Shown piece by piece: positions 8,670 through 23,348 of a stretch of 64,000 bases of DNA; positions within the stretch are counted from its first letter, which is position 1; the number at the start of each line of letters is the position of its first letter. Both the position numbers and the translations under genes were made by a program. Where the stretch lies: NCBI GenBank assembly GCA_965227875.1, contig OZ245783.1, positions 4,769,929 through 4,833,928 on the forward strand, written 5' to 3'. The notes below the pieces were generated by a model that saw only the letters and a list, made by a program, of their open reading frames with translations, had not been told where the DNA came from and searched no databases. The stretch is from Hyphomicrobiales bacterium. Its GTDB lineage: Bacteria > Pseudomonadota > Alphaproteobacteria > Rhizobiales > JAJFHC01.

Positions 8670-8760
8670 GGAGAGGTGGCCGAGTGGTCGAAGGCGCTCC
8701 CCTGCTAAGGGAGTAGGCGTCAAAAGCGTCTCGAGGGTTCGAATCCCTTCCTCTCCGCCA
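8670..8760 (+). tRNA. tRNA-Ser (anticodon GCU), CCA encoded
   Basis: GGAGAGG acceptor stem pairs with CCTCTCC. Anticodon stem-loop is CTCCC-CTGCTAA-GGGAG. Long variable arm (TAGGCGTCAAAAGCGTCTC), T-loop TTCGAAT, terminal GCCA. Confidence 0.92.
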
Positions 8761-8763
8761 TTT
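8744..8763 (+). repeat. attL-like direct repeat TCCCTTCCTCTCCGCCATTT
   Basis: Covers the last 17 nt of the tRNA plus 3 nt. Identical to 14425-14444. Confidence 0.85.
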
Positions 8764-8911
8764 CCCCGAAGACGTATTAGTATGAGTGATTTCAGGGTGT
8801 TAAGGATTGTGCCCTGAATGTCGGTGCCCCAAGTTGGTGCCCCAAGATTGCCACTCCCGGTCTGAAAGCCCGAGCCAACGCAGATCGGAAGTTGCCTGAA
8901 AGGCAGACGCA

Positions 8912-9757
8912 ATGGCCGCTGATGATGCAGAACTGGCAAGGCGCAAGAGTTTAACCTTCAAGGAGGCCGAGGGCTTGGTGCCTCTCCCCTCGCAACTAAA
9001 CCTGCGAAAAACGAGCCCAACCCTCAGAGCGCGGCTGTACGGCGTTGTCCATGATCGCCTGTTGAAAGATCGGGACAACTACTCGGCGAACTTGCGCGAA
9101 AAAAGCCTCGCCGTTATGCGCCACTACTGCATCAACAAGCTCGGCATGATGGCGGACGAACTCCCCCGTCATCGAAGCAAATGGCTGGAGTACGCGAAAG
9201 CGAACTATCAGGCAGATGACTACGGGAAGGTGTTTGACTTCACTCAGATCTTCTTGAGGTTAATGCAGGAAGAAGACCTGTCGCGGCAGGTATCCCATAT
9301 ATTGCAGGATGAGCGAGCAGCGTACCGACTGGTCGATGGCGACACCATAATGCCGATGTCCTCGGAGGAAGAGGGAGCGGCTTTGAATTCTGCATTAGGC
9401 GCCCTTGAGGCGGGCGAATTGGTGGGGCCGCGCAAGCACCTCGTTACCGCTGGGGCAAGATTGACTGAGGGAGACTATGCGGACAGCGTTCGGGAAAGTC
9501 TCCATGCCGTCGAGTCGCTGGCACGGTCCAAGACTGGCAAGAGCAAGTTTTCGGACGCACTGCGAGAACTGCACAACCAAATCCCCATGCACGGCTCGTT
9601 CAGAGCAGCCCTAGAGAAGCTCTATGGTTATGCAAGCGATGAGCCCGGGGTAAGGCACTCGAACTCGGAACAAGGAGAAGCCAAGGTAACAGAACGTGAT
9701 GCTCTGTTCGTCCTTGGGGTCTGCGCCTCCTTCATAACGTACCTACTTTCAGCCTAA
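8912..9757 (+). CDS. AbiJ-like protein (AbiJ-NTD4-type N-terminus, HEPN-type C-terminus)
   Basis: N-terminal 'LTFKEAEGLVPLPSQLNLRKTSPTLRARLYGVV' fits the remembered AbiJ_NTD4 pattern (F-x-x-R/A-x-G...Q...LRN-x-LW). C-terminal 'GDYADSVRESLHAVESLAR...LYGYASDEPGVRHS...ERDALFVLGVCASFITYL' fits the AbiJ HEPN-like tail. Confidence 0.55.
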   Translation: MAADDAELARRKSLTFKEAEGLVPLPSQLNLRKTSPTLRARLYGVVHDRLLKDRDNYSANLREKSLAVMRHYCINKLGMMADELPRHRSKWLEYAKANYQADDYGKVFDFTQIFLRLMQEEDLSRQVSHILQDERAAYRLVDGDTIMPMSSEEEGAALNSALGALEAGELVGPRKHLVTAGARLTEGDYADSVRESLHAVESLARSKTGKSKFSDALRELHNQIPMHGSFRAALEKLYGYASDEPGVRHSNSEQGEAKVTERDALFVLGVCASFITYLLSA

Positions 9758-9793
9758 TGGCGTGCTGCCAGAATGGCAGAAAGGCAGATAGAA

Positions 9794-9880
9794 GGTCGCT
9801 GCGCTCGACTGTGTCTAGCTGGTCGGGCTGGTCACCCTCCATTGGCTCGTATGGTTCGCCGTGACTTATAGTGGGTCGCC
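9794..9880 (+). repeat. Repeat module A, copy 1
   Basis: About 80% identical, in the same orientation, to 11027-11113. Shared core is GGTCGGGCTG.TC.CCCTCCATTGGCTCG. Confidence 0.8.
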
Positions 9881-10050
9881 GAGAGGCGCTGTCCGTCGGA
9901 GCGGGCGGGTTATGCTGCCCATCATCACCCCGCCACTGTGCTGGTTTCCCTGAGGCGTCTGGAGGCCATCTGTGTGACGATACTCGGGGCCGTTTTCCGG
10001 TGGCCCGCATAGCGGGTCACAATCGGGCGGACCTGTGTGGCTGCCACCGG
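9881..10050 (+). repeat. Repeat module B, copy 1
   Basis: About 70% identical, in the same orientation, to 10846-11010. Shared blocks are GCCCATCATCACCCCGCC and ATACTCGGGGCCGT..TCCGGTGG.CCGCAT. It ends 4 nt before the PLD-like gene stop. Confidence 0.75.
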
Positions 10051-10054
10051 ACCG

Positions 10055-10774
10055 CTATTGCTTAAAGTCAACGGTGCTGGATGCCCAAAGCCCCTCATAG
10101 GTCTGCTGAACCGCTGCAAATGTATCAGTGATCTCTGTCAGCGTCGTCGGCGCTTTCTTCGCGCCATCCTTGAATGAGGCGCCGGACTGGAAGCAACGGG
10201 CTTTGTCGATGAGGACGAAGCGATCATGGAAGTTCGCGGCCGAACGCACCTCCAATGAATGGCCGTACTGCTGAGCATAGGCTGTCGCTGCCGGGACTAA
10301 TGTGGCCTTCCTTTCTCTACACAGAAGTCGGACTGGAACGCTCTTGTCGATGTGAGGAATGTAGCGCGTCACGAACTCCGCATCCAAATAGGGATCGACG
10401 AACAGGACATCGGCTCGGGCACTCTCAATGACATTCCTAACGCCATCGAAGTAGTCGAACACCATCCCCCCATCGACGGCCAAGCCAGTTGGTCCACCAA
10501 TGTTCCGTTGGAGTCTCCAACGAGCCGCTCGGAGAAGTCGGCGGATTTCTACCTCGCTCGTGTAGCTCGTCAACCGGTCATAAAGGCCCCCTATCGCGGG
10601 ACCGATTGGCTTCGACAGAGGGGTCGGCAAATCCATGAAAGTGGCTTGCACACGGCCCAGCCAATCCAAGGTTGCATCATCATCATTGTCCATCTGGCCC
10701 AAAGCCGGTGATGTACGGATGATGTCTTCAATCTCTACTAACAGCTGCCTTTCGTCCAAGAACGCCTCCTCCAT
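10055..10774 (-). CDS. PLD-like (HKD-variant 'HDR') domain protein
   Basis: C-terminal 'VLFVDPYLD...VRLLCRE...FHDRFVLIDKARCFQSGASFKDGAKK' is a single phospholipase-D/nuclease-like repeat in which HDR replaces HxK. The N-terminal ~110 aa are unknown. Confidence 0.6.
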   Translation of the reverse strand: MEEAFLDERQLLVEIEDIIRTSPALGQMDNDDDATLDWLGRVQATFMDLPTPLSKPIGPAIGGLYDRLTSYTSEVEIRRLLRAARWRLQRNIGGPTGLAVDGGMVFDYFDGVRNVIESARADVLFVDPYLDAEFVTRYIPHIDKSVPVRLLCRERKATLVPAATAYAQQYGHSLEVRSAANFHDRFVLIDKARCFQSGASFKDGAKKAPTTLTEITDTFAAVQQTYEGLWASSTVDFKQ

Positions 10775-10845
10775 CTTCCATACGCTTTGTACCGGTCCAA
10801 CAAAGCTTATAAAGCGACCGCAACGCCTTGGCCAAGTGTCCCGCT

Positions 10846-11010
10846 AAGAGGCGTCGTCCGACAGCGCGGAGTGGCTCGCCCATCATCACCCCGCCTCTGC
10901 GCGGACTTTGCAGAGTCGGCTGAACGCCATCGGTGCGGCAATACTCGGGGCCGTCGTCCGGTGGTCCGCATGGAGGGGCACATTGGGACTGGTCCGATGG
11001 TGCTGCCCGG
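10846..11010 (+). repeat. Repeat module B, copy 2
   Basis: See copy 1. It lies 71 nt upstream of the PLD-like gene start. Confidence 0.75.
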
Positions 11011-11026
11011 CTCGGGTAGCTAGGCC

Positions 11027-11113
11027 GGTCGCTCCGCTCCCGCTGCTCTGATCGGTCGGGCTGATCGCCCTCCATTGGCTCGCTTGGCTCGCCCTGAGTC
11101 ACAGTGAGTCGCT
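11027..11113 (+). repeat. Repeat module A, copy 2
   Basis: See copy 1. Here A follows B, the opposite order to copy 1. Confidence 0.8.
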
Positions 11114-11210
11114 GACGGCAATGTTACAGTTTCAGGTGGGGAGACAATGCGGGCAAGCCTAACGGGCCTGCACAGGCTTCTATGAGGCTCCTGGGGGCCT
11201 TTCCTTGGGG

Positions 11211-11259
11211 CGGGAGATTGGCCCTCGGCTCCTCTTCTCCCCATCCCCTCGGTGGTTAC
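11211..11259 (+). repeat. Direct repeat C, copy 1 (flanks serine recombinase)
   Basis: CGGGAGATTGGCCCTCGGCTCCTCTTCTCCCCATCCCCTCGGTGGTTAC. Matches 12351-12399 at 47 of 49 positions in the same orientation. Weaker similarity extends about 15 nt upstream. Confidence 0.85.
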
Positions 11260-11457
11260 CTAGGACGGCCACACTATGCCGACTTGGCGTTGCCGCCCCG
11301 TGCCCGGCCTGTGCAGATAGACCCTGTTTCCCCGACGCGATGGATCGGCCTTGCGGTCTAGGCTTGGTGGCACGGGCCTGCGGTCAGGGCTTGAAGTCCG
11401 TGCCGTACCTAACCGCCTTCGGCCACTGATTCTATCTCAAGAGCGAGGGGTGCAGCC

Positions 11458-12012
11458 CTAAGTCGCCAATGCGCGATAGACGCTGCGCTCGCTGATGCCA
11501 AGCTGAGTGGCGATGGCTGTGCGGGTCACGCCTTGGTCTGCCAGCGACTTGATGGCGTCCCGTTGGGCCATGGCCTTAGGCTTCCTCCCTGTGTACTTCC
11601 CTTGCGCCTTGGCCTTCTCAATCCCGGCCCTCTGCCTCTCCAGCATCATGGTCCGTTCAAACTCAGCGAAGGCCGCGAACATGGCAAGCTGTAGCTTCCC
11701 TGTGGCCGACTTGGTGTTGATCGTCTCGCCAGCGAAGTCGAGTATGCGTAGCCCAATCCCCCGCTTCTCTAGGTCGTCCACAAGGGCGAGGAGGCTGCGA
11801 AGGTCTCTGGCGAGCCTGTCCATCTTCGTCACCACAAGCGTATCGCCCTCGCGGAGATATCTCAGGGCTTCGTCAAGCTGGTCCCTCTGTGAGGCCCCTG
11901 AGGCGTGTTCCTCAAAGATGCGCTCGCAGCCTGCCGCCATGAGTGCTTCACGTTGGGCGTCCAGTCCCGCTACTTGGTCAACCGTCGAGGTCCGTGCGTA
12001 GCCTGTGAGCAT
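11458..12012 (-). CDS. Small serine recombinase (resolvase/invertase family)
   Basis: 'MLTGYARTSTVDQ' holds the catalytic Ser motif. Also 'LVVTKMDRLARDL' and a C-terminal HTH 'GVTRTAIATQLGISERSVYRAL'. ATG at 12012 has AAGGAAGG 8 nt upstream. The ORF is open to 12039. Confidence 0.9.
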   Translation of the reverse strand: MLTGYARTSTVDQVAGLDAQREALMAAGCERIFEEHASGASQRDQLDEALRYLREGDTLVVTKMDRLARDLRSLLALVDDLEKRGIGLRILDFAGETINTKSATGKLQLAMFAAFAEFERTMMLERQRAGIEKAKAQGKYTGRKPKAMAQRDAIKSLADQGVTRTAIATQLGISERSVYRALAT

Positions 12013-12350
12013 AAGGCAATCCTTCCTTTGGTCTGCCATTAGGTTCTAGACCTTGGTTTGATGACATGACAAAAGGTGGAAGTCAACCCTAATGGCAGAC
12101 TTAATGGCTGCGGACCCTGACAGCATCAAGACCCTGCCAGAACCTTGCCCTATTGGCAGTACGGGGCGGCTTCGAGCGATGACACTGGACGGCACCCCCC
12201 GGTGTTGGAAAACGTTGGGGCGCTGGACAGTGCGAATGGCGCTGCGAAAACGTGCTGGCGGGGCCTATGGGGAAACTCGCCCATTGCTACGTAAAAGACG
12301 ACCACTCGAATGAGCGACCCGTCAGCAGCTACTCGGGGTTTCCTTAGTGT

Positions 12351-12399
12351 CGGGAGATTGGCCCTCGGCTCCTCTTCTCCCCTTCCCCTCGGTGGCTAC
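12351..12399 (+). repeat. Direct repeat C, copy 2
   Basis: See copy 1. The spacing of 1140 bp encloses the recombinase gene. Confidence 0.85.
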
Positions 12400-12508
12400 T
12401 TCGGGCCGATCTGTACGGTGACTTCATGGTCACTTTGATCATTGCGACAAGGCGCGGCATGAAGACGACCGCAACGCTAGGAGGGAGAGGAGAGATGGGT
12501 CTTCCCCT

Positions 12509-12523
12509 CCCACACAGTGTGGG
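12509..12523. promoter_or_regulatory. 15-bp perfect palindrome CCCACACAGTGTGGG
   Basis: Read directly. The arms are too close for a hairpin loop, so it is more likely a dimeric protein-binding site. Confidence 0.35.
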
Positions 12524-12526
12524 GAC

Positions 12527-12612
12527 CTCTATGGCTACTTAGTGTCGCGACTCTATGTATGCTACCAATAGACCGCTCATAGCCCCTTGAAAACACTCAA
12601 AGTCTCAACTCA
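12527..12612 (+). repeat. Repeat D, copy 1
   Basis: About 75% identical to 12669-12752. Each copy contains the sub-motif CTC(T/C)ATG(G/TAT)GCTAC twice, and the block CCCTTGAAA.C.CTCAAAGT. Confidence 0.75.
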
Positions 12613-12668
12613 GTGTTTTCTGCGGCCCTTCCAGCGGTCTTCACCGTGTCGCAGCCTTGAGGGATGGT

Positions 12669-12752
12669 CTCCATGGCTACCTGGGGGACCCTCTATGTAT
12701 GCTACTTATTAACGCCGCGTAGGCCCTTGAAATCGCTCAAAGTGCTAACTCA
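12669..12752 (+). repeat. Repeat D, copy 2
   Basis: See copy 1. It ends on the stop codon of the small ORF at 12750. Confidence 0.75.
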
Positions 12753-12971
12753 AGCCAATCTAGCGGCGGCGTTCCGCTGGTCCTCAATGAGCGCTTCGAG
12801 CCACGGTTTTAAGTCGGCTCCGCGTCGCCAGTCCCTCAGGAAGTCCGCCGTCTCGTAGTCGGGCAGGAAGTCTGGCGCAAAGGCGACGGCTGCGGTCAGT
12901 TCCTTCAGGTCGGCGGGGCCGATCTTGCTCAGGTCAGTGGCCATAAGGTCGCGGTCCTGATCGGTCATCAT
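12750..12971 (-). CDS. Hypothetical 73-aa protein translationally coupled to the integrase
   Basis: Its ATG (12969-12971) overlaps the integrase TGA (12968-12970) as ATGA. Acidic, no family recognised. Confidence 0.45.
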   Translation of the reverse strand: MMTDQDRDLMATDLSKIGPADLKELTAAVAFAPDFLPDYETADFLRDWRRGADLKPWLEALIEDQRNAAARLA

Positions 12972-14389
12972 TGGTCGGTGTCCTTGTGTTGGGCGAGGGA
13001 TTCGGGTGGAAGCTGGACGGCTTCGACGCAAGGACGCATGGCTTCAGGTGGCGTCTTGCCGGGGTAGTGACTCATGGTGAGGTGGAGCATTTGCTTGATG
13101 CCGCCGTCACTATGGCCAACCACATCGGCAATAACCCAAGGTGTGTATCCCGCTTCGGGGTTCGCCATTTCGTCTCGGGCCTTGAGGATGAACCACCTGC
13201 GGAACGAATGGAAATCGACGTTGGACTTCGCCTTGTCGTTTGGCCTTTCATCGACTCCAATGTTGCATCGGTATCTGCTGAAGCGCTTCGAGGCAGGATC
13301 GGAACGGCTGTCCCTTGACAGCGGCACGGGAGGCAGTTCTTCAATAAGGTAGTCCGTGGGCCGCTTACCTTCGATGCGACGATCTACGATGGCCACAAGG
13401 GCGCTGTGTACGGGAATGCGCCGCTTGGCGTTCTCAGTCTTGCCAGCGGGGATGCTGAATATGCCACCCTCGCAATCGGACACCCTAAGTTGGCATATCT
13501 CCTCAATCCTCATGCCGCTCAGCGCTGCAATGCGCATCAGGTCAGCCAGAATGGGCGGTGCGGGGCCATAGATCAGGGTCGCTAGCTCAGCGTCCGTGTA
13601 AGGTCGTTTGCCACCGTCTGGCTCCCCTTCATGGGCGACACGTCGCGGCGGCGATGGGAGGGCCAATCCGCGCCACGGGCTTTCGTGTTCAATGTGCCCC
13701 TGCTCCTCCATCCACTTCCAGTACTCACGGAGGAAGCCCAGGTAGGTGCCCGCCCTGTTCCGCGATAGCTTTCCTGCAAGCTCCTCCCGAATAAACCTTT
13801 TGGCGGCACTGCGGTCCAAGGCCTCAACGGTCGTGTGTAGGCTGTTCCGCTCTAGCCATTTGGCCAGCATGTCTAGGACGCGGGAGAAGTCCTTTGCGCC
13901 CTTGATGGTGTAGCTCTTGTGCGCCTTGAAGGCGTCTGCAAGGTAGTCGATTGGTGTCGCCCGTCCGCTGATCACCTGCCAGATTTCCTTTGCCCTCTCC
14001 TCCCCGTAGTCCTCCTCCACTTCGCGGACCAGATCGGGGATGGCGGCATTGGACACTTGCATGGGCATTGAGTAGTTGAGCCGGATGCGCAGAGCCTCGG
14101 CGTTGATTGGATCGCCCGCGTCAAGGGACTTCTGTGCGGCGCTGAGGATGCCCTTCAGCGTCGCCACCACGGGCCACTTCCGCTCGTTCGCTGCCCGAAG
14201 GTCTGCCGTGCCAAGTGATTGCTTCAGGAAAGTCTTACCAATGATCGGGACAAGCCGCTTGGGCACCCTGACCCGCACTCTCCATTGCTGGCCGTGCCAC
14301 TCTAGGTATTGCCGATTGCTGGTCACGCTTGCCCCGTTTGTGCCCCACCACAGTGCCCCAGCTTGGAGCGTAAACTGCAATAAAGTCAA
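12968..14389 (-). CDS. Tyrosine recombinase / phage-type integrase (DUF6538-like N-terminus)
   Basis: N-terminal 'YLEWHGQQWRVRVRVPKRLVPIIGKTFLKQSLGTAD'. Catalytic region 'LSGMRIEEICQL', 'HSFRRWF', 'VGHSDGG...MSHY'. There is no ATG at the 5' end, so the start is TTG 14389 or GTG 14326 (uncertain). Confidence 0.88.
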   Translation of the reverse strand: MTLLQFTLQAGALWWGTNGASVTSNRQYLEWHGQQWRVRVRVPKRLVPIIGKTFLKQSLGTADLRAANERKWPVVATLKGILSAAQKSLDAGDPINAEALRIRLNYSMPMQVSNAAIPDLVREVEEDYGEERAKEIWQVISGRATPIDYLADAFKAHKSYTIKGAKDFSRVLDMLAKWLERNSLHTTVEALDRSAAKRFIREELAGKLSRNRAGTYLGFLREYWKWMEEQGHIEHESPWRGLALPSPPRRVAHEGEPDGGKRPYTDAELATLIYGPAPPILADLMRIAALSGMRIEEICQLRVSDCEGGIFSIPAGKTENAKRRIPVHSALVAIVDRRIEGKRPTDYLIEELPPVPLSRDSRSDPASKRFSRYRCNIGVDERPNDKAKSNVDFHSFRRWFILKARDEMANPEAGYTPWVIADVVGHSDGGIKQMLHLTMSHYPGKTPPEAMRPCVEAVQLPPESLAQHKDTDQ

Positions 14390-14424
14390 CAGGTTCTAAC
14401 AATGAAGATGCGGGGGAGAGTGCC

Positions 14425-14444
14425 TCCCTTCCTCTCCGCCATTT
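14425..14444 (+). repeat. attR-like direct repeat TCCCTTCCTCTCCGCCATTT
   Basis: Exact copy of 8744-8763. It lies 36 nt from the integrase 5' end. Confidence 0.85.
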
Positions 14445-14640: not shown

Positions 14641-16002
14641 TCAGTAGGGCCGACGGATCGAGAGACGCTCGTAGTGCGTGGACCCCAGCATCCCGTTTTC
14701 CGGATACTCGCTGATGCGCACAGAGTCCGACTGGTTCCCGCCCAGCAACCTGATCTTTCCGTCGCTGGCGCCCGTCCAGAAACCCACATGGCCGCCGATG
14801 ACCGCGCCGCCGCTCGATCCCGAACGCCGCCGGAACACCGCGATGTCGCCTTCGCGGGGGTCCCCGGTGACATCCGTGCCCCAGCCGCTGTCGTGCCAGG
14901 ACATCGCCCACTTGTTGTCCGTCCCGTTGAGGCCGGCCTGCTCGACGCAGTAGTTGACGAATGACGAGCACCACGCGGTTTCGTCGGGATACGCGCCACC
15001 GTTCGTCGTCGCGTGGTACATGACGATTCGCGGGTTGTGCGCGCTGCCCGCGATTTCCCTGACGCCAAGCTTCATTTCCGCGTAGGCCACGTCTATGGGC
15101 CTGTCGTGGGTCGCCTCGATCGGGAAGCCGCCCGCCGACGGACGCAGGAACGCCCCATGCATGAAACCGTCGGCGACGCCGTCGCCCTCGAGGTCGACTT
15201 TCACCCAGTCCCCCGAACGCCCGATGGCCGAAACGATGGCCCCTTCCGGCAGACTCCCGCTGTCGGCATATTCGGTTCCTGGGCCCTTTCGGACCTTGAG
15301 GCCCGACCGCGCGGTGACCTCCATGAGGACGACCGTGGACGACAAGGTCTCCGGCGCCTCCCCGTCGAGGCGGAACTGCCCGAATTCGGCGAAGGCCGGG
15401 CTCACGATATTGCCGTCATAGGTGAACGCCCCGCCCGGCCAGGTCTTGTGAAGGTACTTCTGGAACACCGCCCAGCGGTCGGTCTTCAGCATGTCCCGCG
15501 TGCCCGACCATCCGGTCGCACCGGCGAGCCACGCAAGGTCGACGAGTTCCTTCTTCATCATGACTGTCGCGACCGTGCCCGAACCGTAGATCCCGACCCG
15601 GTAGTCGTTTCCAAGTGCGGCACGGACCTCCTCGAAATAAGGCACGATCCTGTCCAGCTCGCTCTGGCGGAAGTAGTCGTGGTCGACCGCGAAGTAGATG
15701 GCCGAGCCTTCCGGCTGCTCCAGTCCGCGCGCCAGTTGAAGCGCCCTCTTCGCGTCCGCCCTGCCGCTCTGCGCGTCGAGGTCGTCGATGTGTCCACCCG
15801 CCCCGCCGCGCTGCTGGAACACCACCGCGATGGCGAGGTTCGCCGCGGTGAGGGCCGCCGCCTCCTCCGGCTCGAGACGCTTGGTCGGCAAGTTGTTGCT
15901 GTTGCGGTGATTGTAGTAGCGGATGACCGTCTTGACCCCGCGTGCAGCAATGTCGTCCGCGTTGTCGGCTATGTTCATGGGAACGTCGATTGCGTCATAC
16001 AT
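14641..16002 (-). CDS. Multidomain peptidoglycan hydrolase: DUF1906 (GH25-like) + SH3 + TIGR02594/CHAP-like
   Basis: 'GVKTVIRYY...AIYFAVDHDY...YRVGIYGSG' (DUF1906/Rv2525c-like). 'GLKVRKGPGTEYADSGSLPEGAIVSAIGRSGDWVKV' (SH3b). 'DETAWCSSFVNYCV...GDIAVFRR...GHVGFW...LLGGNQSDSV' (TIGR02594 NlpC/P60-CHAP-like). No signal peptide. Confidence 0.85.
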   Translation of the reverse strand: MYDAIDVPMNIADNADDIAARGVKTVIRYYNHRNSNNLPTKRLEPEEAAALTAANLAIAVVFQQRGGAGGHIDDLDAQSGRADAKRALQLARGLEQPEGSAIYFAVDHDYFRQSELDRIVPYFEEVRAALGNDYRVGIYGSGTVATVMMKKELVDLAWLAGATGWSGTRDMLKTDRWAVFQKYLHKTWPGGAFTYDGNIVSPAFAEFGQFRLDGEAPETLSSTVVLMEVTARSGLKVRKGPGTEYADSGSLPEGAIVSAIGRSGDWVKVDLEGDGVADGFMHGAFLRPSAGGFPIEATHDRPIDVAYAEMKLGVREIAGSAHNPRIVMYHATTNGGAYPDETAWCSSFVNYCVEQAGLNGTDNKWAMSWHDSGWGTDVTGDPREGDIAVFRRRSGSSGGAVIGGHVGFWTGASDGKIRLLGGNQSDSVRISEYPENGMLGSTHYERLSIRRPY

Positions 16003-16037
16003 GCTTTAGTCCTCCTGAGTGAGGGACGTCCTCGGGT

Positions 16038-17174
16038 CTACTGGGCGCCGAGATTCCATTTCAGCGACACGTTTCCGAACGTGTCATCCTTTCCGAGCTT
16101 GCCTGTTGTCCGGCCGACCTCTGTTTCCAGCCAGAAGCCCTCCGTCAGGCGGAATTCGGCGCCTCCGGTAAACTGCGGGTAGGAGTCGTCGCGCCCGTCT
16201 TCGCGTTCGGAGTGGAAATAGGCCGCCTCCGCCGAGACGTTCCACAGGGGCGACCCGGCACGGAAGCGCGCCGCAGCGACGCCCGTGTCCTGCTCGATGA
16301 AGGCGCCCGACCGCGTCGTGTCCGCGACGACTTCATCGAGCCGGAAACGCCCGTGCAGGACGAACTGGCTGTCGAAACCGAGGGGCTGGGTGTGCAGGCG
16401 AATGCCGAGCGTGCTCCAGAAAGCGATGCCCGCCCAGTCGAGGTCGTCAAGCGAACCGGACTTGCTGATCGCAGCGGGCGTCACGCCAAGCGTCCACGCC
16501 GACGGGTTGTTGAACGCGGGGGCGAAATCCTCCTTGCAGCGCTTCTTTTTCAGCGCCTGCAGGAGCAGTTTCTCCTCCGCGTCCCGACGCCGGAAAGCCG
16601 GACCATCCCCGAGCGGGTTGAGCACATCTCCGGTGACATGCGGCGGTGGCAACTCGGCGAACGCCTCGGCGAGGCAGCCGAGATAATCCCCGTTGCGGCG
16701 CGGATCGTGTTCTTCGGCGATCCAGGGCGTGACATGCAGACCGAGCGCGATCTGCGTGGACTTGTTCGAGCCCTCCGTCGATTTTGCCGTCGCCAGCGAC
16801 ACCTGCGTGTTGGTCAGCAGCCTCGTCATGTAGCTGCCCTGATAGTCCCCGAGCGAAACGGCATCGCCGTAGAAGACCAGGTAGGGATTGGTATCCAGCG
16901 CGACACCGGTCTGCAGGTCCCCGTTCCTGTCGATGGCGTTGAGAAGCGAAGCGCCGAGTTCGGTCGCCGTCGACGGGTTCGACGCGTTCTGCGGCGAAAG
17001 CCCGAGGATCGTGAACGCCGGAGATTTCGGCACGGAGACATCGACCTCCGGCACGTCGCCCATGTAGTGGTTTCCCAGGTGCACGCTTCCCGACTGCGCC
17101 GCCGCCATCTGCGGGACCGGAGCCAGGCACGCAACCGCGGCGAGGCAGGCCCATGTCCTGTAAATGTCTTTCAT
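16038..17174 (-). CDS. Hypothetical exported protein, possibly outer-membrane beta-barrel
   Basis: Signal peptide 'MKDIYRTWACLAAVACLAPVPQMAAAQ'. The C-terminal third has alternating hydrophobic beta-strand-like segments and ends 'VSLKWNLGAQ'. No family recognised. Confidence 0.6.
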   Translation of the reverse strand: MKDIYRTWACLAAVACLAPVPQMAAAQSGSVHLGNHYMGDVPEVDVSVPKSPAFTILGLSPQNASNPSTATELGASLLNAIDRNGDLQTGVALDTNPYLVFYGDAVSLGDYQGSYMTRLLTNTQVSLATAKSTEGSNKSTQIALGLHVTPWIAEEHDPRRNGDYLGCLAEAFAELPPPHVTGDVLNPLGDGPAFRRRDAEEKLLLQALKKKRCKEDFAPAFNNPSAWTLGVTPAAISKSGSLDDLDWAGIAFWSTLGIRLHTQPLGFDSQFVLHGRFRLDEVVADTTRSGAFIEQDTGVAAARFRAGSPLWNVSAEAAYFHSEREDGRDDSYPQFTGGAEFRLTEGFWLETEVGRTTGKLGKDDTFGNVSLKWNLGAQ

Positions 17175-17185
17175 GGCCGCCTCCC

Positions 17186-17581
17186 TCAGGATGCCGACAG
17201 AACGAAGCCGACATCGAAGGCGGCCACACCGTTCTTCAGCATCATGCGCTTCGTTCTCGGGCTGCCGCCCGCGTCGTCACCGCCCTGCAGGAACGACACG
17301 GTGACGCTTGCGAAGTTCTCCGGTCCCTGCGGGTTGATCAGCGGGGAGATGAAGCGCGCGGAAAGCGTAATGCCGACACCGTCGAGAACGGCGGCCGACC
17401 CACCAAGAACATGTTCCGGATTGTCTCCGCCAATGACGGTTCCCGAGTGCAGCAGGACGGGATCGGGTTCGCCCGGCAGGAACTTGTACAACCAGTAATT
17501 GGCCGCGTTGGCCTGTCCGAACTTCAGGCGGCACACGGGCGCGTCTGCGTTGGTATCGAGTTTGATGCTGTAACCGGCCAT
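17186..17581 (-). CDS. Hypothetical 131-aa protein (first gene of the hydrolase operon)
   Basis: ATG at 17581 follows GGAGGGAG. It ends 11 nt before the next gene. No signal peptide and no family recognised. Confidence 0.55.
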   Translation of the reverse strand: MAGYSIKLDTNADAPVCRLKFGQANAANYWLYKFLPGEPDPVLLHSGTVIGGDNPEHVLGGSAAVLDGVGITLSARFISPLINPQGPENFASVTVSFLQGGDDAGGSPRTKRMMLKNGVAAFDVGFVLSAS

Positions 17582-17805
17582 GTCGGTCTCCCTCCTCTGC
17601 AAAAGCCATAGGGCACGCTTCCGCCAATCTTCACCGGCGCTGGCCATACGTTTTCGCGCAGCGTGCCGTGGTGAAGATCAAGACTAGGAGGGGGGAAATC
17701 CGGCCTGCTGTGAGTAATGTGTGAATTGTGACGTTCGACGACTGTTCCGCGCCAAAACAACGACGAAAGAACACAGCCGGCGAGGACTGCGCATCACGCG
17801 CGATA

Positions 17806-17826
17806 CGCCCTTTTCCCGAAAGGGCG
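17806..17826 (-). terminator. Hairpin downstream of the 66-aa gene
   Basis: CGCCCTTT-tcccg-AAAGGGCG (8-bp stem) lies 18 nt after the stop at 17844. There is no U-tract, so the terminator call is tentative. Confidence 0.3.
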
Positions 17827-17843
17827 AGCGATCCTTCGATCGA

Positions 17844-18044
17844 TTACTGTGACGGAGGCCGCGGCGCGAGGTCCGCCTGGCTGATCCGGTCGGCGAGAAT
17901 GATCAACCAGTGGACAACGGCCTTCTGGTGATCCTCGAGTTCGCTCAGTTGCGAAACCTCGACAGCGGACTCCCTGAATTCCGACCATCTGAGGAAGAAA
18001 TCCATCAGGTCTTTCACGCAGACCTCCCGGTCGACTTGCGCCAT
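17844..18044 (-). CDS. Hypothetical 66-aa protein
   Basis: ATG at 18044 follows GAGGTGG. Sequence 'MAQVDREVCVKDLMDFFLRWSEFRESAVEVSQLSELEDHQKAVVHWLIILADRI'. Divergent from the regulator gene. Confidence 0.45.
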   Translation of the reverse strand: MAQVDREVCVKDLMDFFLRWSEFRESAVEVSQLSELEDHQKAVVHWLIILADRISQADLAPRPPSQ

Positions 18045-18225
18045 TTCCGTACCACCTCGAGCATCATGTACTGACGCCAACCTAAGAGACAGCGGCACCG
18101 TCTACGGCGTGAATAAAGTGTGAGGCAGGTTGGCAGCTCCCGGGGCCGGTGGTATCGATTGAATTGATCATCATTAAATACCTATCGAAAAGTAGTGTAT
18201 TCTATAGTGATTTCGGGGGTGCGCC

Positions 18226-19875
18226 ATGGCAGACAAACAAAACAGGATTTTGTCGGTCAATCTGTTTGGGGCATGCTTCGTTCAATCTGCAACCGGTGAC
18301 AGCTTCAGCATCACGGGAGACAAGCATCGCGCCCTGGTGGCCCTGCTCGTCACCGCTCCGTTCGGCCGCCGGTCCAGAACCTTCCTGCAGGAAACGCTGT
18401 GGGGGTCCGCGAACTACGATACCGGACGCCAGAACCTCCGCCGGGCCCTCTCCGACATCAAGCGCAGGATCGGGCCGGCGTTCGAAGGGCTTTTCCGGTC
18501 GACCAATTCCGACATCACCATAGACCTGACGAAGATCGAGTTTCTCGGACGTCCCGGGTCCGGTATTTTCCTCGACGGCCTCGACATTCCGATGGTCCAG
18601 TTCCAGCGCTGGCGCAACGCGATCAGGGACAACCCCAGCCAGCTCTACGCGTTGTACAGCCTCGAGGCGAAACTGCCCGAAACACAGATCGTGCCGTCGA
18701 TCGCCATCCTTCCCTTCCGCGCCTTGGGCGGATCCGACATGGAAAGCGTGATGGGCGACTGGCTGGCGGAAGAAATCTGCAGGTCGCTGTCACGGTCGAA
18801 CCTGTTGCACGTCATCTCGCATCTTTCCAGCCGCGTGCTCGCGAAGCGCGTCGTCGACATCGGCATGGTGCGCGCTGCATTCAACGTCGACTATTGCGTC
18901 ACGGGCACCCTGCGTCATGTGGACGGCCACTGGGTCCTCGACACCGACTTCGTGGATGTCCGGTCCGGAAAACTGCTCTGGACCCGCCAGTTCAAGCGTG
19001 ACCAGGCGACGTTCTTCAGCACGTCGGCCCAGGGCATCGGCGAACTGATTTCGGCCATCGGACGCTCGATCGCGGACGAAGCCATACGTCATGCGACGCA
19101 GAACCGGATGGACAGTCTCCGCGATCACCAGATGCTGATGGCGAGCGTCAGCCTCATGCACAAGATGACCCTCGCGGAGTTTGCGCGCTCGCGCGAGTTG
19201 CTCGAGGAGCTTCTGCGCCGGGCCCCGCATGCCGCCGAGGCCCACGCCTGGCTGGCCGAATGGTACGTGATGTCCATCTTCAACGGCTGGAGCACGGACC
19301 GGGAGCGCGACCAGTTGCTGGCCTGCGACAGCATTGCAAGAGCCCTCGACATCGAACCTGAAAACGCCTTCTGCATCACGATCGACGGCGTGGTGAACAA
19401 CAACCTGCTGCACCGGCTGGACCTGGCCGAAGACCGGTTCGACCACGCCCTGGAACTAAATCCGAACCAGGCGATGTCGTGGCTGTTCAAGGGCGTCGCG
19501 CACGCCTATCGGGACGATGCGGAAGAGGCGGTGAGCTGCGCGGAGAAGGCGCGGCGCCTGTCGCCGTTGGACCCGCTCGAGTATTTCTTCGACTCGCTCA
19601 GTGCGACCGCTCATCTCGCGGCAGAGAATTACGACAGGGCGCTGGAACTCGCCGACAACGCAATCCGCCTGAACAGCCGCGAGATATCCTCTCTCAGGGT
19701 CAAGATTTCATCGCTCTACCATCTCGGCCGCAAGGCGGAGGCGGTGGCCATCGCAAATCATCTGCTCGAACGCCAGCCGGGATTCCGCCTCGACCGTTAC
19801 GTGGCGGAACACCCGGCCGCGAATTTCAAGGTCGGTCGCAACATGGCCGAGGCACTGAAAGCCTGCGGTCTCTAG
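18226..19875 (+). CDS. SARP/BTAD-type winged-helix transcriptional regulator with TolB-N-like and TPR domains
   Basis: N-terminal 'ILSVNLFGACFV...GDKHRALVALLV...FLQETLWG...RQNLRRALSDIKRRIG' is a SARP-type wHTH. 'IAILPFRALGG...WLAEEI' follows. The C-terminal ~200 aa are TPR-like. Confidence 0.75.
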   Translation: MADKQNRILSVNLFGACFVQSATGDSFSITGDKHRALVALLVTAPFGRRSRTFLQETLWGSANYDTGRQNLRRALSDIKRRIGPAFEGLFRSTNSDITIDLTKIEFLGRPGSGIFLDGLDIPMVQFQRWRNAIRDNPSQLYALYSLEAKLPETQIVPSIAILPFRALGGSDMESVMGDWLAEEICRSLSRSNLLHVISHLSSRVLAKRVVDIGMVRAAFNVDYCVTGTLRHVDGHWVLDTDFVDVRSGKLLWTRQFKRDQATFFSTSAQGIGELISAIGRSIADEAIRHATQNRMDSLRDHQMLMASVSLMHKMTLAEFARSRELLEELLRRAPHAAEAHAWLAEWYVMSIFNGWSTDRERDQLLACDSIARALDIEPENAFCITIDGVVNNNLLHRLDLAEDRFDHALELNPNQAMSWLFKGVAHAYRDDAEEAVSCAEKARRLSPLDPLEYFFDSLSATAHLAAENYDRALELADNAIRLNSREISSLRVKISSLYHLGRKAEAVAIANHLLERQPGFRLDRYVAEHPAANFKVGRNMAEALKACGL

Positions 19876-19893
19876 AATTGGGGAGGAATTTCT

Positions 19894-21003
19894 ATGTCCT
19901 ATTTTGGCGCAATGCACGGGATGCACGGCATGCATGGGATGCACGGCATGCATGGAATGCACGGCATGCACGGGATGCATGGCATGCACGGAATGCAGTC
20001 TTCAGGCGGCGGCTCCGGGTCGCTCCTCGGCCTGCAGTCGAGTGCCCAGGCCATCGTCCAGGTTGCCAAGGACGAATACCTCGCAGACAGCTTTCTCGGG
20101 ATCCACGACTCCGGCGCGGCACCGGTCAGCCGCTGGGAACCGTATGTCCGGCAGATGCTATATCAGGTCGAGTTCCTGAACCGCTACCGGTGCGAAGCCG
20201 GAACCGACGGCGAAAATGGGGTCTCCGGCGTCTCGGTTTCCTGGGCCGGCGAACAATTGCTTTCCCTCGGCAATCCGCCCGAGGCCACATTCATCGCCCA
20301 GCTCGGCAAGACGGCCGCGGAGGCCAGCCAGCGGGTTCAGCGCTACGACGAGATCATCTCGCAGGCAGGCGCGTTTCCCGATTATTTCGGCATGCTTCTT
20401 TCCCTGACCATGCCGCAGTTCACCCACACGTTCGAACTCATCCAGACTGTACACGTCCTGGCCGGCTACGCGTCCATGCCGCCCAAGCACCTGCTCGCGT
20501 GCCGGCGGCCGAGCGAGATCGACGGCCGCCTGATGACCCTGCTGCCCAATCCCGGCCACGGCAGCTTTCCGAGCGGACATGCGACGCAGGCGACGGCGGT
20601 CGCCACCGTACTCGATCACCTGCTCGACGTTGTCGCAGAGCACTACCCCGACACGGAAAACAGAAAGCGGCTGATGAGGAAGCAGGCGCGGAGGATCGCC
20701 ACCAACAGGACGGTCGCCGGAATCCATTTCCCGATCGACCACACGGCCGGCGAACTTCTCGGCAAGCGGGTCGGTATCATGCTGCTGAGGGCATGCGGGG
20801 TGGCTGCGGCGGACACGCCTGTGAAACGAGCGACCTATACCGCGTACAGTGGCGACGCCTACGCCCAGTCGGTGAATGAGCCCATCGAGAAGGCCACCGG
20901 TGTCTCCGAAGACGACGAAGAAATCGCATCCACGGACCGGATCGAGGTGTTCGAGTGGCTGTGGTCGAAGTCGGTCGATGAATTCATCCGCAGAGCGGCA
21001 TGA
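19894..21003 (+). CDS. PAP2 / vanadium-haloperoxidase-like protein with N-terminal (Met-His-Gly)x9 repeat
   Basis: GGGAGGA lies 6 nt upstream. N-terminus is 'MSYFGA(MHG)9MQSSGGGSGS'. PAP2 tripartite motif is 'CRRPSE' ... 'FPSGHAT' ... 'NRTVAGIHFPID'. No TM segments or signal peptide. Confidence 0.75.
   Translation: MSYFGAMHGMHGMHGMHGMHGMHGMHGMHGMHGMQSSGGGSGSLLGLQSSAQAIVQVAKDEYLADSFLGIHDSGAAPVSRWEPYVRQMLYQVEFLNRYRCEAGTDGENGVSGVSVSWAGEQLLSLGNPPEATFIAQLGKTAAEASQRVQRYDEIISQAGAFPDYFGMLLSLTMPQFTHTFELIQTVHVLAGYASMPPKHLLACRRPSEIDGRLMTLLPNPGHGSFPSGHATQATAVATVLDHLLDVVAEHYPDTENRKRLMRKQARRIATNRTVAGIHFPIDHTAGELLGKRVGIMLLRACGVAAADTPVKRATYTAYSGDAYAQSVNEPIEKATGVSEDDEEIASTDRIEVFEWLWSKSVDEFIRRAA
19912..19992 (+). 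repeat. 9-bp in-frame tandem repeat ATGCA(C/T)GG(N) x9
   Basis: Read directly. Units start at 19912, 19921, ... 19984. Variation is only at synonymous third positions. Confidence 0.95.
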
Positions 21004-23348
21004 CGATGGACGACATCGCGCCGATCACCGGGACATCGATCCCTCAGAAGAAACTCGGGCCCTATGAACGCTGGATGGCGGAATTCGGCAAGGACTACGA
21101 CCTGCCGCCCATGTCGCTGCAGCACCCGTCCTACCTCTCCGGGATTGCCCGTTTCTCCCGGGCCCAGCCCACACTCCCCGCTCCAAATGACATGGCGGAC
21201 ACCGCTGTCACCGTGGGAAGCATGGGATCGTGGCGCCCGACACTCTCGCCGGTGATGTGGCGGGGGCCGCAGGGTCGCGAGTTCCATTATTCGTTTCTTC
21301 CCATGCTCATGGAGGCAAGGACAGGGACAGAAGATCCGGCCGGGGTTTTCAATGCGCAGGTTTTCGAGTCGCTTGTCGCCAGTCTCCATGAGGACTACGA
21401 CGCGCACATCATGAGGCAGAAAGAAATTGCGGATTCGTCCGATCCTTTCCCGGAGTTACCGCCGGGCTACGAGGGGTTTCTGGAGGATTTTCTTAACGAG
21501 CCCCCGCCCGATTTCAGTTTCGGCTTCCCTCTCCAGGCCCGGTCGGTGAACGTGTCGCAGTCGCCAGACGCCCCTCGGACCGTCTCGCGGGCCACGAGAT
21601 CCCAGGCGGTCTTCAAAGACGACGCCTACAATCCGGAAAAGCCGCTCGTGATCGTCGCCGTGATCGACGATGCAATTCCGTTCGCGCACAAGGCCTTCAG
21701 ATGCAAGGGCAGCGGAAAGACGCGGATCGACTATTTCTGGAGCCAGTCGGCGGAGGCCGACGGCACGATGCTTTTCGGGCGAGAGTTGTCCGGCCGCGCC
21801 ATCGACGACCTCATCATGCAACAAGACGGCGACGAGGACGTCCTGTATCGGCGGGCCGGCGTCCTCGGCGGAAACGGCGGGCCGGTTTCCGCGCTTGCAG
21901 GCAACTTCTCCCACGGCGCCCATGTCGCCGGGCTTGCGGCCGGGGACTGGCCGGCCGACAGCGATGCCAATGTCCGGATCATCGCGGTCGACCTGCCCGT
22001 ATCGAGCAGTTGGGATACATCGGGCTTCGGCAAGGACATGTTCGTCCTCAGCGCCATGCACTATATTTTCGACCGTGCGGACAGGATCGCGGAAGCCTAC
22101 GGATCCGACACCCCTCCCCTGATCGTCAATCTCAGCTATGGCTATTCCGGCGGGCCGAAAGACGGGACCGGTCTCATCGAACTCGCGATGGGCGAGATGG
22201 TCCATCATCGCCGCAGCGTTGTCCGCGCCCCGACGGCCCTCGTCATGCCGAGCGGCAACATGTTTCTCGACCGGTTGCACGCCGTGGTCACCGAAAAGCA
22301 TATCGCGAAAGGCAAAACGGCGACGTTGCCCTGGCGGATCCTCCCCGATGACCGGACATCCAGCTTTCTCGAAATCTGGCTTCCGGCAGGTGTCGGGGCC
22401 GATGATTTCCGTCTTGTCGTCAATAGCCCGGACGGCACCAGGGTCATCGAGGAGACAGGAACTGTCGAGTTGCCACGGACCGTCGACATGGACGTCGACG
22501 GAAAGCGGGTCGGCCAGTTTTCCATCGACCAGCGCGACACCACGAACGCGGCCGCGCGCGACAGTGGCGTACAGCCACAGACACGCATCATGCTCGCCCT
22601 TGCCCCGACGGAAACCATGTGCCATCTGCCGGCCGCGCCTGCGGGCCTGTGGACGGTGGAAATCTCCTACGCGGATGGAGCCGAGGAAGGGAAACTGCAG
22701 GGCTACACCACGAACATCGTGGGTGAACGCGTCCCTGCGGATATCCGTTGCTGGATCCAGAGAGACGTCTCGTTCGGAACCAACGACATCGGCGCGAAGC
22801 AGAGCATTTTCGACGATCCGCTCAACACGCTCTACGACAGTCATGGACGCCCGCACGACACCGACTCGGTATGGCGGGACGACTTCCTGGTACGGCGCTT
22901 CGGCAGCATCAACGGAATGTCGACCCACCCCACGGTTCTGGTCGTCGGTGGCTACGTCCGCAACGAGTACCGTCCGGCACCCTACAGTTCCGCGGGCTTC
23001 CTGCGAAAGAACGAGGCCTCGGAGTGGGCCTGGCTGGCCGGCGACCAGGTCGACTGCGTGGCCCCGAGCGAGGAGTCATGGATCGACTTCGGGATTCCGT
23101 CCATCGGAACAAGGTCGGGAATGCATGCGCGCATGAATGGCACGAGCGTCGCAGCACCCCAGGTCAGCCGGCGTCTGGCCCTGTATTTTTCCGGGCAGGA
23201 CCAGGCCCGGATGTCGGACGGAGACTGGATCCGGGAGACCGGCAATTATGTCCGCAAGCTCGAGCCCGACCGGAAGAAGTACCAATCCGTTCATGGAACG
23301 ATAAAACAGAAGGACGAGGCCCTGATCGGCCAGGGCCTGATCGACTAG
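21000..23348 (+). CDS. Large intracellular subtilisin-family (S8) serine peptidase
   Basis: ATGA overlap with the upstream stop. Asp 'VAVIDDAIPFAH', His 'NFSHGAHVAGLAAG', Asn 'MPSGN', Ser 'MNGTSVAAPQVS'. No signal peptide. The ~220-aa N-terminal region is unknown. Confidence 0.85.
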   Translation: MTMDDIAPITGTSIPQKKLGPYERWMAEFGKDYDLPPMSLQHPSYLSGIARFSRAQPTLPAPNDMADTAVTVGSMGSWRPTLSPVMWRGPQGREFHYSFLPMLMEARTGTEDPAGVFNAQVFESLVASLHEDYDAHIMRQKEIADSSDPFPELPPGYEGFLEDFLNEPPPDFSFGFPLQARSVNVSQSPDAPRTVSRATRSQAVFKDDAYNPEKPLVIVAVIDDAIPFAHKAFRCKGSGKTRIDYFWSQSAEADGTMLFGRELSGRAIDDLIMQQDGDEDVLYRRAGVLGGNGGPVSALAGNFSHGAHVAGLAAGDWPADSDANVRIIAVDLPVSSSWDTSGFGKDMFVLSAMHYIFDRADRIAEAYGSDTPPLIVNLSYGYSGGPKDGTGLIELAMGEMVHHRRSVVRAPTALVMPSGNMFLDRLHAVVTEKHIAKGKTATLPWRILPDDRTSSFLEIWLPAGVGADDFRLVVNSPDGTRVIEETGTVELPRTVDMDVDGKRVGQFSIDQRDTTNAAARDSGVQPQTRIMLALAPTETMCHLPAAPAGLWTVEISYADGAEEGKLQGYTTNIVGERVPADIRCWIQRDVSFGTNDIGAKQSIFDDPLNTLYDSHGRPHDTDSVWRDDFLVRRFGSINGMSTHPTVLVVGGYVRNEYRPAPYSSAGFLRKNEASEWAWLAGDQVDCVAPSEESWIDFGIPSIGTRSGMHARMNGTSVAAPQVSRRLALYFSGQDQARMSDGDWIRETGNYVRKLEPDRKKYQSVHGTIKQKDEALIGQGLID

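Follow-up and report, generated by a model that had tools for sequence, protein, structure and literature searches.

A conserved gene pair for a small protein and a predicted outer-membrane barrel, and the endolysin-type hydrolase genes that recur beside it

How enzymes that degrade the cell wall and carry no signal peptide leave Gram-negative cells is, as far as we are aware, poorly understood outside of phage lysis and large secretion machines. This question is raised by a tight cluster of three genes in a 64,000-nucleotide stretch of contig OZ245783.1 from a Hyphomicrobiales bacterium, which we refer to as the window. The last gene of this trio encodes a 453-aa peptidoglycan hydrolase without a signal peptide, and the two genes in front of it encode a 131-aa small protein and a 378-aa exported, barrel-like protein. 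A preliminary description of the locus had offered three readings of this arrangement: a secreted antibacterial effector with a periplasmic immunity protein, a dedicated release route for the hydrolase, or the remnant of a lysis module on the attR side of an integrative island. Is the hydrolase gene a functional part of the cluster, and if so, what could the three proteins do together?

The open reading frames (ORFs), their sizes and the gaps between them on the minus strand (11 nt between the 131- and 378-aa genes, 35 nt between the 378- and 453-aa genes) are as previously described; the coordinates of these and all other features are listed in Table 1. Each start codon of the trio, including the ATG at 17581, is preceded at a distance of 6-8 nt by a Shine-Dalgarno-like GGAGG or AGGAGG motif, and the hydrolase gene has a ribosome-binding site (RBS) of its own (AGGAGG, 8 nt before its ATG). 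An alternative start of the first gene at 17647, which would give a 153-aa protein, is not used in the orthologue. No terminator-like hairpin was found inside the trio. Upstream of it, such a hairpin is found at 17771-17792, past the end of a 66-aa ORF, and there is a weak one downstream of the hydrolase gene. The hydrolase gene recruited in the window is operon-like in its arrangement.

Conservation of the gene pair and its variable neighbours

Searching with profiles and scanning loci, we located the family of the 378-aa barrel protein in 30 genomes and on 80 metagenome contigs. The family comprises 27 clusters among 5.8 billion proteins. Together with loci fetched earlier, 120 loci were available, which fell into 85 groups at 90% barrel identity. 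It was these scans of genomic and metagenomic loci that revealed the true spread of the two protein families, both of which a word-indexed homologue search had under-reported (2 and 9 matches). An exhaustive HMMER scan with the small protein returned three credible relatives along with repetitive false positives. The hosts of the barrel family are mostly Acidobacteriota, Pyrinomonadaceae above all, and further include Gemmatimonadota, Ignavibacteria, Calditrichia, Hymenobacter-like Bacteroidota, Binatia, Fibrobacteraceae and, rarely, Alphaproteobacteria. No relative of the barrel was found in the 2.9 million viral contigs of IMG/VR.

At every locus with upstream sequence, a small ORF without a signal peptide lies directly 5' of the barrel gene, typically only a few bases away from it or, often, overlapping it by 4 nt. 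The small upstream proteins are detectably homologous in 66 of the 85 non-redundant groups. Clustering of all neighbouring genes yielded no third universally conserved gene, and we therefore rejected the possibility that the two genes belong to a larger conserved operon. The comparison shows that the conserved unit, as judged by gene order and homology, is the pair of the 131- and 378-aa type and not the trio. The exact trio is restricted to contigs of the same species: the 90%-identity cluster of the hydrolase has three members, all of them on contigs with an identical or near-identical trio. Neighbourhood conservation, which the preliminary description had suggested analysing, holds for the pair, but not for the exact trio, which does not co-occur elsewhere and in this formal respect speaks against the preliminary idea, although the arrangement itself recurs with functional analogues of the hydrolase. 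In the searchable literature we came across no account of either the pair or such an arrangement. The small protein and the barrel are two uncharacterised families.

The closest relative of the locus is found in a metagenome-assembled genome (MAG) of the Alphaproteobacteria (L001). This genome retains the 131-aa gene (68% identity, at the same position), the barrel gene (68%; 376 aa) and the 66-aa ORF, as well as the divergent operon encoding TPR, PAP2-like and S8-like proteins. The syntenic block has a length of about 9 kb (14641-23348 of the window versus 4251-11540 of L001) at 69-72% nucleotide identity, and the nucleotide synteny ends exactly at the stop codon of the barrel gene. The adjoining end of L001 (11605-18474) starts with the gene for an 85-aa holin-like protein with two transmembrane segments, followed by those for an 828-aa GDSL-lipase/Amidase_3/Peptidase_M15_3 protein and an 886-aa trypsin-like/EEP (endonuclease-exonuclease-phosphatase) protein. 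These three products lack signal peptides, and the fourth, a DUF3616-like protein, has one. The cargo end of L001 is a battery of lytic enzymes. The different flanks of the block in the two genomes suggest an accessory unit with a variable "cargo" end.

To describe this variable slot, we scanned 48 non-redundant next-gene proteins against Pfam, namely the products of 47 first-downstream genes on the same strand and the hydrolase of L001. Muralytic occupants were GH19 proteins with or without PG_binding_1 (4 loci), Amidase_3 (2 loci), CHAP (2 loci), Amidase_2 with SH3 (1 locus), a PF11860 muramidase (1 locus) and the Rv2525c-like protein of the window itself (1 locus). The slot is also filled by DHDPS (14 loci of one clade, in vertical synteny), by small membrane proteins of the DUF4257 family (4 loci) and by patatin, a phospholipase (2 loci). 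The second genes add M74-like proteins with PG_binding_1 (twice), SLT_2 with PG_binding_1 and one SH3 protein, and in two loci a gene for a VanY-like hydrolase separates the barrel gene from the DHDPS gene that is usual in that clade. Of the 27 matches that a phmmer sweep with the slot enzymes gave over the 3116 ORFs of all loci, 19 fall no more than 1.1 kb downstream of the barrel gene. Two upstream cases were also found, with hydrolase genes shortly before the pair in L020 and in the L026 group. As a control, we took 88 ORFs from the two positions upstream of the pair; of the 69 families that they matched, 25 were listed, and none of these is a lytic hydrolase family.

Overall, 13-14 of 71-85 non-redundant loci have a muralytic gene beside the pair, usually just downstream, and these genes represent at least eight catalytic families that are unrelated to each other; these counts come from crude ORF calling (longest ORF, greedy), include many loci from related Acidobacteriota and are not corrected for phylogeny. 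The hydrolase-bearing loci are scattered over the barrel tree, and the hydrolase genes are nearly all on the same strand as the pair. With the exception of one ambiguous SLT_2 protein, the slot hydrolases have no signal peptide even at the longest possible N-terminus. Among the 13 hydrolase-bearing loci, only two, L019 and L015, have holin-like candidates, and in L015 holin- or spanin-like small membrane and coiled-coil genes follow the amidase gene. Such a recurrence of hydrolases beside the pair is nevertheless hard to ascribe to chance, and the compared loci show that different lineages independently and repeatedly recruited signal-less endolysin-type hydrolases of unrelated families to this position.

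Some further genes attracted our attention in the same neighbourhoods. Patatin-like phospholipases recur both upstream and downstream of the pair (L020, 1928-6019; L028, 12877-16983; L044, 9774-11768; L090, 2184-3395; L015, 11186-12445), and some of them have a length of 1363-1368 aa and contain PG_binding-like segments. Metallophosphoesterases are likewise recurrent near the pair. In 4-6 non-redundant loci the hydrolase in the slot is replaced by a DUF4257 protein with two to three transmembrane segments (L035, 3992-4474; L037, 9113-9559; L072, 6612-7118; L113, 1554-1943), which could be an inner-membrane partner. On a Bacteroidota-like metagenome contig (L017, 3978-13170), the pair is located between three genes for NamZ exo-beta-N-acetylmuramidases and the gene for a SusC-like TonB-dependent receptor; by its gene content, this arrangement looks like a locus for utilisation of peptidoglycan glycan.

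Properties of the three proteins

The three-domain architecture described for the 453-aa hydrolase was confirmed, with all domains scoring above the curated cut-offs. The N-terminal Rv2525c_GlyHyd-like domain (PF08924, formerly DUF1906), which is GH25-like, reached 106.7 bits against a Pfam cut-off of 27.2. It also matched PDB structures of Rv2525c weakly (E 2e-4) and an endolysin family of PHROGs (E 1.5e-18). The wall-binding SH3b domain (SH3_3) scored 37.2 bits, with a gathering cut-off of 27, and the C-terminal, NlpC/P60-like peptidase domain 106.6 bits for TIGR02594 (cut-off 70.55). Within the latter, the Pfam family CHAP matched residues 338-423 (E 1.6e-9; 38.6 bits versus a cut-off of 26), and the putative catalytic residues Cys345 (AWCSSF) and His405 (GGHVGF) are in place. 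This part of the protein was assigned by PHROGs to "baseplate hub subunit and tail lysozyme" (E 1e-27), and phage baseplate-hub proteins were among the matches of the hydrolase in phage records. Since the ORF begins at the first possible start codon and the N-terminus is not hydrophobic, the hydrolase truly lacks a signal peptide, as had been noted before. We did not find the full three-domain architecture in 72,556 plasmid and 50,697 phage records, in which no match spanned 80% of the query. Thus, each domain is a clear member of its family, and the multidomain combination of Rv2525c-like, SH3b and CHAP/TIGR02594 parts is absent from the plasmid and phage records searched. The pair is likewise absent beside the nearest plasmid-borne TIGR02594 and Rv2525c-like genes. 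The nearest plasmid-borne gene with SH3 and TIGR02594 domains lies on pSymA of S. meliloti (L129, 56121-66831) in a row of genes on the same strand, preceded by the gene for a SUMF1/EgtB-family enzyme and followed by those for a C1-family peptidase and for a caspase-family protein. This may be a different, conflict-type neighbourhood for the hydrolase domain.

The 378-aa protein starts with a Sec signal, MKDIYRTWACLAAVACLAPVPQMAAA/Q, in which the K and R residues of the n-region are followed by a hydrophobic core and an AAA/Q junction; its homologues likewise begin with signal peptides. Its AlphaFold2 (AF2) model, calculated from an alignment of 26 sequences, reached a predicted local distance difference test (pLDDT) score of 84 and a predicted template modelling (pTM) score of 0.77. 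It consists of the signal peptide, a helical N-terminal region, 10-11 long beta-strands and a 30-residue helix. The most conserved motif of the family, VPxSPAFTxLG...P...LLN, falls in the helical N-terminal region, and six of its columns (P49, P52, A53, F54, L57 and P67) are invariant in the 26 sequences. In Foldseek searches against the PDB and viral models, only outer-membrane barrels were found, at template modelling scores of 0.2-0.33, including autotransporter translocators, FapF, porins and OMPLA. The last strand shows an alternating pattern (VSLKWNLGAQ), and the C-terminal residue is Q instead of F, W or Y. No family was found for the protein in Pfam, NCBIfam or PHROGs at E<=0.1, PADLOC gave no match, and neither did PDB sequences, searched with the single sequence and with a profile. 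Because Foldseek finds outer-membrane barrels only, we regard the 378-aa protein as an outer-membrane beta-barrel of no described family, with 10-12 strands predicted from the model. Accordingly, the earlier suspicion of an exported barrel-like protein is borne out by the Sec signal and a confident barrel model, and membership in a well-known porin family, which would have spoken against a special role, was not seen: no curated outer-membrane protein family matched.

In the barrels of Pyrinomonadaceae (L020-L033, L066, L078 and L125; first ~200 aa), the signal peptide precedes an additional beta-rich domain of ~100 aa and then a linker rich in Pro, Ser and Thr. The domain reminded us of wall-binding domains of the AMIN type, but PDB sequences searched with a profile did not support this likeness, and we do not claim such an identity.

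Much less can be said about the 131-aa protein. It gave no match in Pfam, NCBIfam, PHROGs, PADLOC or PDB sequences (single sequence and profile), and 27 homologues of the small protein gave only scattered chance matches in Pfam. Neither the protein nor its 26 aligned homologues have a signal peptide, a transmembrane segment or a lipobox. The structure prediction that the preliminary description had called for produced an all-beta model with eight strands, but this model was built from two sequences only and is unreliable (pLDDT 49).

Possible functions of the pair and its hydrolase

The reading that we tentatively favour is that the three proteins cooperate as a phage-independent lysin cassette, serving either the release of the enzyme or the regulated lysis of some cells. 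The hydrolase would be synthesised in the cytoplasm and would depend on the pair, either for assistance or for control, to get to the sacculus; the role of a cytoplasmic partner or chaperone would fall to the small protein, and the barrel would provide the outer-membrane step. The divergently encoded TPR protein would be the likely regulator. As a result, the lytic enzyme would be released to the outside or a fraction of the cells would undergo regulated lysis, an effect akin to that of type 10 secretion or of lysis cassettes, minus holin or spanin. A more general version of this idea is more doubtful, though possible: the pair may be a hitherto unrecognised, phage-independent envelope device, widespread among soil diderms, that allows cytoplasmic lytic enzymes, muralytic and sometimes lipolytic ones, to get to the envelope or out of it without a holin, a spanin or a known secretion system, and would then represent a new release route or controlled-lysis mechanism. 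With a conserved pair and a slot that is refilled by unrelated signal-less hydrolases, a dedicated release route is the best fit among the three readings offered originally.

Several known systems resemble such a cassette in part. In type 10 secretion, for example in Yersinia entomophaga, muralytic phage-type enzymes are used for protein release (PMC10847048). Like these systems and phage lysis cassettes, which combine holin, endolysin and spanin, the trio places a signal-less endolysin-type enzyme in a compact cassette with envelope proteins; in both cases the enzyme starts out inside the cell and has to break through or traverse the envelope, and lipolytic enzymes are sometimes co-encoded. 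In contrast to them, the window has no holin or spanin, and the same applies to most related loci. There is no small ORF with a transmembrane segment on the operon strand in the window, and at the trio we found no lipoprotein or type-II membrane protein pair, the 131-aa protein having neither transmembrane segment nor lipobox and the 378-aa protein no canonical lipobox. Moreover, the pair does not occur in the viral contigs of IMG/VR, and the 131- and 378-aa proteins are without a PHROG match. We know of no described lysis cassette that uses a small signal-less protein and an outer-membrane beta-barrel as accessory proteins.

Another parallel is mycobacteriophage Ms6, in which the small chaperone-like protein Gp1 enables holin-independent export of the signal-less endolysin LysA, and whose lysis cassette further encodes a lipolytic enzyme that serves the outer layer (PMC6116114). 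What the two have in common is the gene for a small signal-less protein shortly before that for an endolysin lacking a signal peptide. However, there is no sequence relationship, the small protein of the window is coupled to the barrel gene and is kept in the absence of a hydrolase, and the host is a diderm rather than a mycobacterium. The best fold matches of the barrel are plugged secretion barrels of the outer membrane (the autotransporter translocators AIDA-I and EspP, and FapF), which are 12-stranded with a helix in or near the lumen, but the template modelling scores are low, as given above, and sequence similarity is absent. Furthermore, the substrates of these barrels carry Sec signals, whereas the 131- and 453-aa proteins do not.

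A number of points weigh against a cooperation of the three proteins. About 80% of the pair loci have no hydrolase nearby, and the pair must therefore have a function that is independent of the hydrolase. None of the trio products plausibly moves a folded 49-kDa enzyme across the inner membrane, and holin-like genes are present in just two hydrolase loci. It is not obvious how a small protein in the cytoplasm could touch a barrel in the outer membrane, and the model of the former is, as mentioned, unreliable. The enrichment of hydrolases was derived from crude gene calls in many related Acidobacteriota loci and is not phylogeny-corrected. Ultimately, we infer the link between the three proteins from sequence. 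If the link is real, the compact two-gene module would be a candidate, and a tractable one, for a new route of release or controlled lysis in abundant, little-studied soil phyla, and would bear on interbacterial antagonism, the turnover of soil necromass (peptidoglycan), the formation of vesicles and engineered lysins that are to be exported. Should the release idea fail, two uncharacterised families are still defined, the fold of the barrel is confident and the genomic association can be tested.

The same observations have to be weighed under other explanations. If the three genes were neighbours without a functional link, the slot would be a permissive, variable one, the hydrolase an independent arrival (an orphan endolysin or a cytoplasmic enzyme) and the outer-membrane role of the pair unrelated to it. 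We consider this unlikely, even though the slot of the window adjoins a tRNA integration hot spot, the synteny with L001 breaks at the barrel stop codon with different cargo beyond, hydrolases are missing from most loci, the hydrolase gene has its own RBS, and DHDPS, membrane proteins and regulators also fill the slot. Chance poorly explains why 13-14 non-redundant loci with at least eight muralytic families carry these genes nearly all on the same strand and mostly just downstream, with no lytic hydrolase among the listed families of the two upstream genes; the 35-nt gap without a terminator likewise speaks against this reading. In the sense of peptidoglycan turnover or scavenging, the barrel might instead let wall fragments or some other substrate derived from the envelope pass the outer membrane as a channel, and the signal-less enzymes might process imported muropeptides in the cytoplasm, as AmpD-type Amidase_2 enzymes and cytoplasmic NlpC/P60 recycling peptidases do. 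The signal-less Amidase_2, Amidase_3 and CHAP enzymes fit such a cytoplasmic role, and scavenging is also suggested by the pair of L017 between NamZ genes and a SusC-like receptor, which is reminiscent of a polysaccharide-utilisation locus for wall glycan. But SH3b, PG_binding_1, GH19, GH25-like and PF11860 muramidase domains act on polymeric wall and not on small fragments that were imported, the pair has no inner-membrane permease as a conserved companion, and patatin lipases and the trypsin/EEP protein are found in the neighbourhood as well, and scavenging therefore seems rather improbable to us.

Export by a contact-dependent machine encoded elsewhere in the genome, such as a type VI secretion system (T6SS), would make the hydrolase a cargo effector and the pair unrelated or accessory to it. 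The signal-less muralytic architecture agrees with this, and proteins with a TIGR02594 domain are predicted VgrG-linked T6SS effectors in Stenotrophomonas maltophilia (PMC13055248). The trio also resembles T6SS effector/immunity pairs (Tae/Tai, Tge/Tgi) in that a signal-less NlpC/P60-type or glycoside-hydrolase enzyme is found next to a protein with a signal peptide. It differs from them in that the exported neighbour is an outer-membrane barrel common to unrelated hydrolase families and that no vgrG/hcp/PAAR context was seen: no vgrG, hcp, PAAR-like, adaptor or small periplasmic immunity gene is adjacent to the trio, and inspection by eye of the large ORFs of the window, of which no profile scan as a whole was made, revealed no vgrG, hcp, PAAR or adaptor gene. 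In addition, catalytic and binding domains fill residues 17 to 436 of the hydrolase with no trafficking domain, and the same slot pattern occurs in phyla and loci without secretion genes nearby, which leaves a T6SS effector an improbable explanation. Highly improbable is a degenerate prophage lysis module, with the hydrolase as leftover endolysin and its neighbours as leftover phage morons. Its domains resemble phage endolysins and tail lysozymes, including the PHROG and baseplate-hub matches, and L015 with its holin- or spanin-like genes after the amidase gene would suit this origin. The trio, however, lies outside the repeats of the island, no phage structural, holin or spanin genes were seen in the window, the barrel family is absent from the viral contigs, and the full architecture of the hydrolase is in no phage record; the lysis-module remnant of the preliminary description is not supported. 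Least credible, and hardly to be expected, is an effector with its immunity protein, in which the exported 378-aa protein would neutralise the hydrolase in the periplasm of the producer. Although it has a signal peptide and adjoins a muralytic enzyme, it is a predicted integral outer-membrane barrel and not a soluble inhibitor, and its strict coupling is with the small gene before it rather than with the hydrolase. Members of one barrel family stand beside hydrolases of at least eight unrelated families and, in most loci, beside no hydrolase at all; since an effector-specific immunity protein would not accompany many hydrolase families, the specific immunity role proposed before is not supported.

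Genomic surroundings of the trio

The trio sits just beyond the right end of a 5.7-kb integrative island at tRNA-Ser(GCU) (8670-14444). The island is bracketed by 20-nt direct repeats, TCCCTTCCTCTCCGCCATTT, at 8744-8763 (the 3' end of the tRNA gene) and at 14425-14444, which confirms the placement of the trio on the attR side and puts it outside the island.

Table 1. Features of the trio and of its surroundings in the window
Feature	Position	Strand	Basis or remark
Gene 1, 131-aa small protein, no signal peptide	17186-17581	minus	ORF list, RBS
Gene 2, 378-aa exported protein, predicted outer-membrane beta-barrel	16038-17174	minus	ORF list, AF2 model
Signal-peptide coding part of gene 2, aa 1-26	17097-17174	minus	sequence; segment low-confidence, helical in AF2 model
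Most conserved motif of the barrel family, ~aa 47-95	16891-17036	minus	26-sequence alignment
Gene 3, 453-aa signal-less three-domain peptidoglycan hydrolase	14641-16002	minus	ORF list, Pfam, NCBIfam
Rv2525c_GlyHyd-like domain (PF08924), aa 17-180	15463-15954	minus	Pfam, E 2e-30
SH3b domain (SH3_3, PF08239), aa 233-286	15145-15306	minus	Pfam, E 3e-9
TIGR02594/CHAP peptidase domain, aa 305-436	14695-15090	minus	NCBIfam, Pfam
Conserved 66-aa small ORF upstream of the trio	17844-18044	minus	called as gene on same-species contigs; kept in related MAG
Divergent gene for 549-aa TPR protein	18226-19875	plus	TPR matches; syntenic with the pair in related MAG
Genes for PAP2-like 369-aa and S8-like 782-aa proteins	19894-23348	plus	end of block syntenic with related MAG
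attR-like direct repeat of the tRNA-Ser island	14425-14444	plus	repeat comparison; puts trio outside island
Tyrosine-integrase-like gene of the island	12968-14389	minus	
Resolvase/invertase-like gene of the island	11458-12039	minus	
Unknown ORF of the island	10055-10774	minus	
Unknown ORF of the island	8912-9757	plus	

PADLOC models gave no match for the trio, the 66-aa ORF or the TPR, PAP2-like and S8-like proteins, and a known anti-phage defence system was therefore rejected. Judged by eye, the N-terminus of the TPR protein looks like a winged helix of the SARP/OmpR type, for which Pfam returned no Trans_reg_C match. Two antisense ORFs on the plus strand, opposite the hydrolase and barrel genes (15013-16182, 389 aa, and 16212-17498, 428 aa), are high-GC shadow ORFs; their apparent conservation in BLAST clustering across loci mirrors the true genes on the opposite strand. 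Finally, the PAP2-like 369-aa protein starts with a (Met-His-Gly)n tract encoded by 9.6 copies of the 9-nt tandem repeat ATGCACGGC (19912-19997). Because the orthologue of the related MAG aligns only from residue 46/48 on, this repeat may be strain-specific, and one can speculate that the Met/His-rich tract binds metal.

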